Origin: Escherichia coli
GTDB taxonomy: Bacteria; Pseudomonadota; Gammaproteobacteria; Enterobacterales; Enterobacteriaceae
Reading direction: 5' to 3' (one strand)
DNA: 64,000 nucleotides
Assembly (NCBI RefSeq): GCF_003018255.1
Contig: NZ_CP027440.1
Below the pieces are notes generated by a model, which saw only the letters and a program-made list of their open reading frames with translations, searched no databases and was not told the origin of the DNA. Within the stretch, counting starts at the first letter, position 1, and each line of letters begins with the position of its first letter. The translations under genes and the position numbers were made by a program. Positions 49,929 through 56,974 of the stretch are shown here, piece by piece.

Positions 49929-50516
49929 TTAACTGGTCCAGGTAGCGTCGAACTGTACGCTAACGTCGCCGCTCCAGATGCCTTCCGGTAGAGTGCTGTA
50001 ATCGGTTACTGCGGTGGTACCATTGGTGGTGCCGCTGATGATGGAGAAAGTGAAACCATCCTGTGCGGTGGTACGATTGCTGGCATTGTAACCGTTAGCC
50101 AGTGGGCTAAGGTTGCCGCCCAGTACGCCGTTGGCGGTATCGATCATCACGGTATCGCCAGTTTTTTCGACTGCCGCGCCGTTATAATCCACGCCCACAT
50201 TCAGTGTGGAACCTGAGGTATCCAACTGGGTTAAGGTGTTGGTGATAAGGCGTGAGGTCAGTTTAAAGGCGGTAGCCGTTGAGTCACCCTCGATAGCCAC
50301 GTCAAATAGACCTTTTTGTGAGTTAAAACCTTTAATGCCTTCGGCATACTGGAACGCCAGGCTACCGAGTGGCGTCACAACCAGCTTACTGGTGGTGTCT
50401 TTTTTGGCTGTTGCTGACCAGGTCGCTACAGCCTGAGCTGTTACGTCAGCAGCCTGCGCTACACCTGTACCGGTAAACACCGTTACCAGAGCTATTGCCA
50501 GAACCTTTTTTTTCAT
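49929..50516 (-). CDS. ecpA: E. coli common pilus major subunit EcpA (Mat fimbrillin)
   Basis: 195 aa, signal peptide [22 protein letters not shown]. Confidence 0.9.
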
Positions 50517-50589: not shown

Positions 50590-51201
<612 letters not shown>

Positions 51202-51809: not shown

Positions 51810-52215
51810 TCAGTCATCTGTACGCGTTACTCTAACTGGCACTCGAACGTCGGCGATGGGGTTACCGATGGATCTGGCCGTTCCTGTGGCGTAAACGTTT
51901 TTATGTCAGTACCAACAGATTTACCACATTTATCATCTTAACAGTTTGAGTGTAAATGCAGGCTGCGTCGCAAAGGGAGGAAACTGAGTGGCGTGTTCAG
52001 TCTAAAATAGAGTTGATGCCAGCATACAGGGCGCAGCTGGTCAACAAGTCAACATTAATATAATGGAATATTCGGAGAGAAACGTCAGGCAGTTGACCTT
52101 AAATTAACAGGAAGATACATCCCCAGGAAAATTAATGCTGGTGTAATAAATACACCAACATTAATCCGGTATGATTATTAATCAGACAAATATCGTTAAT
52201 TCGTCGAATTTTGAA

Positions 52216-52356
52216 TCAACGTTTTTTCTTACGACCCTGAACGGCCTTAAAACGTGGATTAGATTTACAAATCACATACAGCCGTCCTTTTCGCTTCACA
52301 ATCTGACAGTCTGGATGGCGTTCTTTTGCGGTACGCAGAGAGTTAAGGACTTTCAT
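52216..52356 (-). CDS. ykgO: ribosomal protein L36 paralog (zinc-independent)
   Basis: 46 aa [46 protein letters not shown] translated by hand; start overlaps ykgM stop (ATGA). Confidence 0.85.
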
Positions 52357-52622
52357 CATGCCCCCTTTTTCGTGCTAACAAAACGACCAAAACGTTGGGT
52401 GAACCGTGCAACATTTCCTTCTGATGCCACTGTTCTCAGCTTCCCTGTATAGAACGGGTGCGATTTCGAAGAGACATCAATTGTTACGTACGGATACGTT
52501 ACGCCATCCAGCTCAATCTCACGGTCTGTTTTGATAGTCGAGCCGATTTTAAAGTACTCATCAACGCTGGTGTCGTGGAACACCACAGTACGATACTCAG
52601 GATGGATATTGGGTTTCATCAT
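52356..52622 (-). CDS. ykgM: ribosomal protein L31 paralog (type B, zinc-independent)
   Basis: 88 aa [24 protein letters not shown]…, lacks the Cys zinc ribbon. Confidence 0.9.
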
Positions 52623-52628
52623 TTTTAC

Positions 52629-52649
52629 CTGTTATGTTATAACATAACC
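52629..52649 (-). promoter_or_regulatory. Zur box upstream of ykgM-ykgO
   Basis: Palindrome GTTATGTTATAACATAAC immediately upstream of the ykgM RBS, matching the Zur consensus core TGTTATA-TATAACA. Confidence 0.65.
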
Positions 52650-52983
52650 GTAAAGATACATGCTCATCCGGATCATTTCAACACCCAATCACTGTGACTA
52701 TTTGTGGGATGTGGAATTTCCGCAACGGGGAAGTCTGGCATTGTTAGCAGCCATTGGCGACGCTCCCATAAACGCCTGGATGAGTGATTGATGATGGTTT
52801 CGCTGAGAGTATGGATTTTTCGAGAATGGAGGCTATCTCCACTTTACTGGCCGATGATTTATTGCAGCATGATTGATTACCTGACAATGTGTATTCCTCT
52901 CCCACGGATATAATAATTACTTACAAAAAAGGGAGAGGATGCATATTTTAAATATCACTGAAGTGAACAGTTTATTGCCGTTA

Positions 52984-53085
52984 TTAATAGAAATGGAGAA
53001 ATAAATAGGCGTATTCTACAATTGCGACAAAAACAACGATATTAATCAGTTTATGACTGATTTGCTGTACTTTATTCTCTTTCAT
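52984..53085 (-). CDS. ykgR: small hydrophobic membrane protein YkgR
   Basis: 33 aa MKENKVQQISHKLINIVVFVAIVEYAYLFLHFY found by hand translation; GAGGAAG RBS 6 nt upstream. Confidence 0.6.
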   Translation of the reverse strand: MKENKVQQISHKLINIVVFVAIVEYAYLFLHFY

Positions 53086-53565
53086 TGGTACTTCCTCGCT
53101 TTAAAAAAGAGTGCACTTCGTAAGTGCCCTTATATAAATAACGAGTTTGGTCAACCAATTTTTTGACATGTATCACAAATTTGAATAGATGTATTACATC
53201 GGCTATCTTTTATTGCCCCAACGTCATTGATATATGTCGCCTGAAATCAGTTACGGGAATGAGTCTGATCTCAAGACTGGCCCAGTCCTGGCGTTGATTG
53301 GCGCTGAGGAGCATATCGCATCTCATCGTAACGTCGTATCTCCTGGGGTGTTATACAAGATATCGTTGTAGGTAACCAGGGAGAGGAATTGAGTCTATTA
53401 AACCGTCAACTATGCCGGATACATACTGGATTACACTGCAGGCACGCCTTACGAGAGAACGTGCCGCAGTGACGGGTTAATTATCTGAAAGAATTTGCGA
53501 GGCTGTATCGGTTACTCATTGATTTGATAGTTTTACTCTCGGGAGAGTAATCGATATTTAATCCA

Positions 53566-53808
53566 TTAACGGAAACCAGCCAGTTCCTTTCGATGTCTGA
53601 ATTTCCTTGGCGTGACATAGGTATATCCTGTAATTACTAAACCAATATTTTGTGAGCGACGTTTATAATATTCGAGTTCTTGCTCAGAGATGGTTCCATC
53701 AGGATTAGCTGACCAGGTCGTCATAGGAGCCATAACGATACGATTACATGGCTTTATTTTTTCTGTCAGCATAAAAGGAGAAAACAGTGATAGGTGTTTA
53801 TTTGTCAT
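53566..53808 (-). pseudogene. Old Yellow Enzyme (NADH:flavin oxidoreductase) N-terminal fragment
   Basis: 80-aa ORF with OYE-like N-terminus (…NRIVMAPMT…) that terminates after about 60 conserved residues. Confidence 0.5.
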
Positions 53809-54101
53809 GACAATACCTCAAATGTTTATCTGATTTTGATGTGTATATTTAAACTGGTTAGTTGTTACCAGCTTTGGAACCAAGATTTTTGGCTTTGTTT
53901 TTATTTATAATTACTGTTAGTGCTTTTATTGATTTTATGGTGGAGAAAAGAGTAAAAATAGAAAGTTAATGATGTGTGTCAGAATATCGGTAAGAAGAAT
54001 GGCACAATCGTGAGGGTACGTTTATTCATAATAAATCTCCTGAAAGTTTAGAATTATTTTCGATACAGCCAGATTATCATTGTTACTAATAATGTGGTTA
54101 A

Positions 54102-56974
<2,873 letters not shown>

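Follow-up and report, generated by a model that had tools for sequence, protein, structure and literature searches.

We identified an ATG-initiated ORF encoding 33 amino acids on the minus strand at 52984..53085 of the window (the whole 64,000-nucleotide stretch of E. coli DNA that was analysed); its product is MKENKVQQISHKLINIVVFVAIVEYAYLFLHFY and its stop codon is TAA. Read from 53085 to 52984, the minus strand runs ATG AAA GAG AAT ... TTC TAT TAA. The ORF, its ribosome-binding site and the genes that lie downstream of it are as follows, where loci carrying a valine-to-isoleucine variant at residue 6 (V6I) are called E. fergusonii-type (they are named Escherichia or E. fergusonii in the source databases):

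53091..53097, minus strand: Shine-Dalgarno sequence GAGGAAG, read from the sequence; the same in all E. coli and E. fergusonii-type loci
52984..53085, minus strand: ykgR coding sequence, 33 codons plus TAA (cytoplasmic N-terminus, residues 1-12; transmembrane segment, residues 13-32; one C-terminal residue)
52356..52622, minus strand: ykgM (ORF list)
52216..52359, minus strand: ykgO (ORF list)
50590..51180, minus strand: ecpR (ORF list)
49929..50516, minus strand: ecpA (ORF list)

The best 19-residue Kyte-Doolittle window of MKENKVQQISHKLINIVVFVAIVEYAYLFLHFY covers residues 13-31 (mean 2.01) and the best 15-residue window covers residues 16-30 (mean 2.43); residues 1-12 include three lysines and one glutamate, and the hydrophobic segment extends to the penultimate residue. 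Coordinates, frame and hydropathy profile all agree with the small hydrophobic 33-codon protein that the initial annotation had proposed here, and the GAGGAAG ribosome-binding site it had named is present at 53097..53091; a gap of 5 nt separates its last G, and one of 8 nt its GAGG core, from the ATG. Its prediction of a single transmembrane helix also holds, with one hydrophobic segment (residues 13-32) and the same TMHMM segmentation in Table S1 of PMC10470546. As a control for chance, we collected the ATG ORFs of 25-50 amino acids in all six frames of the window: there are 262, five of which are equally hydrophobic, and ykgR is the only one of the five with a correctly spaced Shine-Dalgarno core. 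The initial annotation had further described the ORF as missed by the ORF track; it is indeed not in the supplied track, solely because of the 60-amino-acid cutoff, but it is not a missed gene, as RefSeq annotates ykgR routinely. The case has value as a control, in that hand translation guided by ribosome-binding sites and hydrophobicity can retrieve genuine small proteins that fall under an ORF-length cutoff.

Identity of the ORF as ykgR

The ORF is almost certainly ykgR, a genuine, monocistronic small-protein gene of Escherichia. Of the 5,426 complete E. coli genomes, 5,084 have matches to a 701-bp query around the ORF, and in 5,050 of the 5,426 one place covers at least 80% of the query; the locus is single-copy (a median of one place per genome with this query, in complete E. 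coli genomes). Many E. coli chromosomes are 100% identical in DNA over the 701 bp, and the matches listed carry the annotation "ykgR: small membrane protein YkgR". In K-12 MG1655 the gene is annotated as b4671, with a translation identical to the window protein, and UniRef has this exact sequence as YKGR_ECOLI. The match to the NCBIfam equivalog NF041474 (membrane_YkgR) scores 78.1 bits (E = 2.6e-22), where the curated cutoff is 40, and residues 1-33 fall on model positions 1-33. PF28062:YkgR is attached to homologues in precomputed annotations; the local Pfam-A scan of YkgR gave no match. The protein corresponds to the description of the family, having about 33 residues, a short basic N-terminus and a single transmembrane segment that reaches the C-terminus, and the gene order ykgR, ykgM, ykgO, ykgL, ecpR, ecpA is found in the window, in SK1144 and in K-12.

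The gene is already known, annotated and experimentally studied; the finding is correct, not new. The Storz and Rudd groups reportedly discovered ykgR in 2008, and studies of membrane-protein targeting and of RseP proteolysis have since used YkgR as a model substrate.

With the same 701-bp query (52700..53400), some genomes have up to four places with partial matches, and 13 matching places lie on plasmids; from these multiple and plasmid matches, a sub-segment of the sequence flanking ykgR is therefore repeated or mobile.

Coding signature and conservation

Among seven E. coli genomes, the ykgR ORF shows one synonymous CAG/CAA change and one frameshift in its 102 bp; over the 301 bp upstream, 23 columns vary. 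The 115 bp directly 5′ of ykgR are as conserved as the ORF itself, and because the stretch from -115 to +102 is almost invariant throughout, comparisons within E. coli cannot separate coding from non-coding constraint. More distant loci carry a clear codon pattern. The window ORF differs from the E. fergusonii-type ORF at seven of 102 positions, namely six synonymous third-position changes and one conservative GTA to ATA change (V6I); the binomial probability of at least six of seven substitutions at third positions is about 0.007 if codon position is irrelevant. The ORF of a metagenomic locus (L012) has four further synonymous changes, and its replacements (V6I, Q8E and H11N) all lie in the hydrophilic N-terminus. 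Combining the E. fergusonii-type loci and L012 gives 10 synonymous changes versus four replacements, and the transmembrane segment is without replacement.

These substitutions bear on whether the ORF is a gene at all. It is very short, it lies in a region (-115 to +102) whose near-invariance within E. coli leaves coding and non-coding constraint inseparable, and its family is very narrow, with nine representatives, mostly artefacts, in 1.84 billion proteins; all of this would suit a chance intergenic ORF that is untranslated and owes its conservation to a promoter or a non-coding RNA. Such an ORF would not, however, be expected to show codon-periodic substitutions (10 synonymous versus four replacements, none in the transmembrane segment) or to be the only short hydrophobic ORF of the window with a Shine-Dalgarno sequence; no Rfam family matches either strand here, and the protein has been detected and biochemically characterised (PMC7549839; PMC10470546). 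We give the chance-ORF explanation practically no credence. The initial annotation had taken the lack of a translation signal as the observation that would speak against its small protein; tagged YkgR has in fact been detected in vivo and made in vitro (PMC7549839; PMC10470546).

E. coli and the E. fergusonii-type loci share conserved sequence only around ykgR. Identity of the window to these loci is 111/115 over promoter and leader and 95/102 over the ORF; it drops to about 35% upstream of -115 and, taken over the entire downstream flank, to about 44%. The aligned stretch is:

52891..53213, minus strand: conserved ykgR module, comprising CRP-like site, promoter, leader, ORF and 3′ inverted repeat; E. 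coli aligns with the E. fergusonii-type loci over this stretch only

Downstream of ykgR, the E. fergusonii-type genomes contain integrase/prophage genes or proline-biosynthesis-like genes (with aldehyde dehydrogenase and amino-acid kinase Pfam domains), and no ykgMO. The limits of the alignment and these unrelated downstream neighbours indicate that the ykgR stretch of about 320 bp is an autonomous module and not a leader of ykgMO.

The position of ykgR 361 nt upstream of ykgM on the same strand, together with suppressor or adaptive mutations that map to the ykgM-ykgR intergenic region (PMC11705850; PMC5818497), could otherwise suggest a leader peptide that controls the downstream zinc-responsive ykgM-ykgO operon, which encodes the ribosomal proteins L31B and L36B. 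We hold such a role to be extremely improbable: ykgM has a promoter-like site of its own at 52681..52653 as well as a Zur-box-like palindrome, the ykgR module is intact in the E. fergusonii-type loci, where ykgMO is absent and the downstream genes are unrelated, O157-type strains show the ykgR and ykgMO units separating, and YkgR, a stable membrane protein, is inserted and degraded by a pathway of its own.

Several observations concern individual loci of the module. In four E. fergusonii-type loci (L008-L011, 3001..3102 plus flanks), the ykgR module follows the same aldo-keto reductase/LysR gene pair as in the window, and the content downstream of ykgR is variable (integrase/prophage, PerC-like and proline-biosynthesis-like genes); this variability suggests a recombination or integration hotspot directly downstream of ykgR. 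In another locus (L013 3001..3105; GCA_900603405.1), two compensating pairs of indels (+2/+1 and +1/-1) preserve the frame and yield MKEENKYSKSVIKLINIVIFVAIVGIRYLFLHFY, and the promoter spacer has a 5-bp deletion; this allele reflects either divergence or assembly error.

Flanking genes and the O157-type allele

The ykgM promoter region lies at about 52634..52681 on the minus strand and includes TTGAAA-17-TATCTT at 52681..52653, the same sequence that Shimada et al. (2014) list for the constitutive ykgMO promoter. The palindrome TTATGTTATAACAT, which follows the ykgM promoter hexamers, is Zur-box-like, and the promoter and TTATGTTATAACAT together fit a zinc-regulated operon of L31B/L36B paralogues.

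Upstream of ykgR, at 53558..53808 on the minus strand, is the remnant of an NADH-dependent flavin oxidoreductase gene, in which hardly anything separates the first 203 nt from the last 47 nt; compared with SK1144, about 890 bp have been deleted from the interior of the gene. SK1144 also has a second LysR regulator gene and an alpha/beta hydrolase gene, neither of which is present in the window, and K-12 has a different remnant, ykgP, at the position of the flavin oxidoreductase remnant.

Two O157-type E. coli genomes (L004 751..851 and L014 751..851) carry ykgR as a pseudogene, in which a run of five T is shortened to four (T5 to T4) and the transmembrane segment is frameshifted; the site corresponds to codon 18 of the window gene, at about 53032-53036. 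In both genomes, an ISEc8 transposase stands in place of ykgM. The loss of ykgR may be O157-wide, judging from these two genomes, and because O157-type strains carry the frameshift, at least one lineage can dispense with ykgR.

Taxonomic range

Searched exhaustively with HMMER, 1.84 billion cluster representatives yielded only nine matches at E <= 0.001, most of which are truncations, read-through products or adapter chimeras. Real diverged forms of YkgR are found only in Escherichia-like contexts, and YkgR is a genus-restricted small protein, confined to Escherichia.

We rejected as variants the chimeric 'homologues' that end in Nextera-type adapter sequence, for example CTGTCTCTTATACACATCT in L012. 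We take CTGTCTCTTATACACATCT to be Nextera adapter sequence, which gives peptide tails such as ...LSLIHI. The apparent C-terminus of the L012 protein is accordingly an artefact, its contig ending in adapter-like sequence (L012 3080..3106). Chimeras of ykgR and adapter are thus present in a large public protein collection (P0017, P0022 and L012), and the CLLYTSDAADDAPRV and SYTHLTLPTNSRV tails probably arose likewise; such chimeras call for caution in small-protein homology searches.

Promoter, leader and 3′ region

The conserved module includes four further elements in addition to the ORF and its Shine-Dalgarno sequence, all on the same strand:

53162..53177, minus strand: CRP-like site TGTGATACATGTCAAA, found by pattern search, matching 9 of 10 consensus positions, with its centre about 41-48 nt before the likely transcription start
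53129..53158, minus strand: promoter-like hexamers, with TTGGTT or TTGACC as -35 and TATATA or TATAAG as -10; the spacer is 16-18 nt with TTGGTT
53103..53127, minus strand: leader stem-loop GCACTT-ACG-AAGTGC, followed by ACTC and T6, found by the terminator scan between the promoter-like hexamers and the ribosome-binding site
52895..52939, minus strand: inverted repeat TCCTCTCCC ... GGGAGAGGA, found by RNA folding, with 9-bp arms and a 27-nt AT-rich loop, starting 45 nt past the stop codon

The overlapping -35-like TTGGTT/TTGACC lies at 53158..53149 and the -10-like TATATA/TATAAG at 53136..53129, and these hexamers hardly vary among E. coli and E. fergusonii-type loci; the stringent consensus promoter scan called no promoter for ykgR. 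In the CRP pattern search, TGTGATACATGTCAAA is the only match in the window with at most one mismatch, a result that is not significant alone, with about two such matches expected by chance in 64 kb. Because of these expected chance matches, TGTGATACATGTCAAA counts only together with its position and its conservation: the E. fergusonii-type loci have kept it, and L012 has kept it in part. The site fits the phrase "CRP activation of ykgR", which the abstract of Hemm et al. 2010 (J Bacteriol 192:46) is said to include. A sigma-70-type promoter just downstream of the CRP-like site would drive a short ykgR mRNA, whose leader would present a stable stem-loop first and a strong, exposed Shine-Dalgarno sequence after it.

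The 6-bp stem-loop itself is at 53127..53113 and was scored as terminator-like. It is kept in all four homologue types, with predicted energies of -6.3 to -7.5 kcal/mol, with wobble or shifted pairs in L012, and because of the position of the -10 element it is probably at or near the 5′ end of the mRNA. There it could serve as a 5′ stabiliser of the mRNA or as an attenuator; no published description of the hairpin was found in the literature searched. The Shine-Dalgarno sequence is mostly unpaired in both the predicted minimum-free-energy fold and the centroid fold, and the ykgR mRNA as a whole has no extra stability compared with shuffled sequences (z = -0.87). Downstream of the ORF, the arms of the inverted repeat TCCTCTCCC/GGGAGAGGA are conserved in the E. 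fergusonii-type loci and its loop is diverged. With no T-run after it in either direction, the repeat does not qualify as a canonical terminator; it may be a 3′ structure of the transcript. An Rfam scan of both strands over 52000..54200 gave no match at E <= 1.

It is conceivable, though on balance we doubt it, that the 320-bp module holds uncharacterised regulation, in which the hairpin and T6 would act as a transcription attenuator or as a 5′ element that interacts with Hfq or an RNase, in a unit that is autonomous in E. fergusonii-type genomes and frameshifted in O157. If true, such regulation, together with the persistence of the module and its loss in O157, would hint at an undescribed, lineage- and condition-specific role of YkgR.

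Biochemistry and proposed life cycle of YkgR

Detection of YkgR in the literature we found is with plasmid-borne tagged constructs. Hemm is said to have observed in 2008 that chromosomal SPA-tagged YkgR accumulates. According to Steinberg et al. 2020 (PMC7549839), arabinose-induced His-tagged YkgR is visible by western blot, and the cross-link between YkgR and SRP is insensitive to puromycin and is lost on addition of membrane vesicles; these two properties of the cross-link indicate that recognition of YkgR by SRP is post-translational. Reviews restate the recognition by SRP; one of them says that YkgR does not insert spontaneously into liposomes (PMC12648545), and YkgR is described as induced in stationary phase (PMC10502375). 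In Yokoyama et al. 2023, all four RseP cleavage assays were positive for YkgR, hence a class I substrate; the proteolysis was seen both in vivo and in vitro (PMC10470546). In Table S1 of the same paper, residues 1-12 are given as cytoplasmic and LINIVVFVAIVEYAYLFLHF as the transmembrane segment, with an N-in/C-out topology that was both predicted by TMHMM and experimentally examined; Fontaine et al. 2011 is cited in its text for the topology of small membrane proteins. A function or phenotype of YkgR is not reported in the literature covered here; the 2025 review (PMC12648545) presents it only as an SRP client, and a 2025 regulatory survey lists ykgR among uncharacterised genes.

On these data, YkgR is a type II (N-in/C-out), single-pass inner-membrane protein, with its net-positive 12-residue N-terminus in the cytoplasm and a helix that runs practically to the C-terminus. 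The chain escapes co-translational recognition because the whole of it fits in the ribosome exit tunnel, and, as the cross-linking shows, SRP binds YkgR after its release from the ribosome. By analogy with YohP, SRP would then hand YkgR to FtsY and on to SecYEG or YidC. Intramembrane proteolysis by RseP limits the level of YkgR. In the manner of MgtS, AcrZ, MgrB and CydX, YkgR most likely binds and modulates a larger membrane protein in carbon limitation or stationary phase.

The same properties recall the toxins of type I toxin-antitoxin systems. The size of YkgR, its single transmembrane helix and its N-in/C-out topology resemble those of the Hok proteins, and its class I RseP status is common to HokB and HokE, so that ykgR might be read as encoding a Hok-, Ldr-, Ibs- or TisB-like toxin that an antisense RNA restrains. 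Several features of the locus argue against a toxin: the Rfam scan of both strands detected no antisense-RNA or sRNA family, the Shine-Dalgarno sequence is exposed and not sequestered in the predicted fold, and the locus is single-copy. Regulation of ykgR is also apparently by a nutritional activator, as Hemm 2010 reportedly found. Arabinose-induced YkgR, moreover, reaches detectable levels in vivo with no mention of toxicity in the accessible text of PMC7549839. A toxin role is therefore very improbable in our estimate.

Comparison with known systems

HokB and HokE are, like YkgR, small N-in/C-out single-pass proteins and class I substrates of RseP (PMC10470546). Unlike the Hok proteins, YkgR is without a periplasmic tail, and unlike the Hok loci, the ykgR locus showed neither an antisense RNA in the Rfam scan nor a fold-back mRNA architecture in the RNA fold. 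YohP (27 amino acids) is, like YkgR, a single-helix inner-membrane protein of fewer than 50 amino acids that is associated with stress or stationary phase and is recognised by SRP after release from the ribosome (PMC7549839; PMC10502375), without any sequence relationship between the two. For YohP the full pathway from FtsY to SecYEG or YidC has been reconstituted, whereas for YkgR PMC7549839 gives the SRP cross-link only.

Compared with K-12 ykgR (b4671, YKGR_ECOLI, NF041474, PF28062), the window differs in the upstream context: it has the deleted flavin oxidoreductase gene together with LysR regulator and aldo-keto reductase genes, where K-12 has ykgP, eaeH and IS3. The 33-amino-acid sequence, ribosome-binding site, leader and promoter region are identical in the two, and in both ykgR occupies the same position upstream of ykgM-ykgO-ykgL-ecpR-ecpA.
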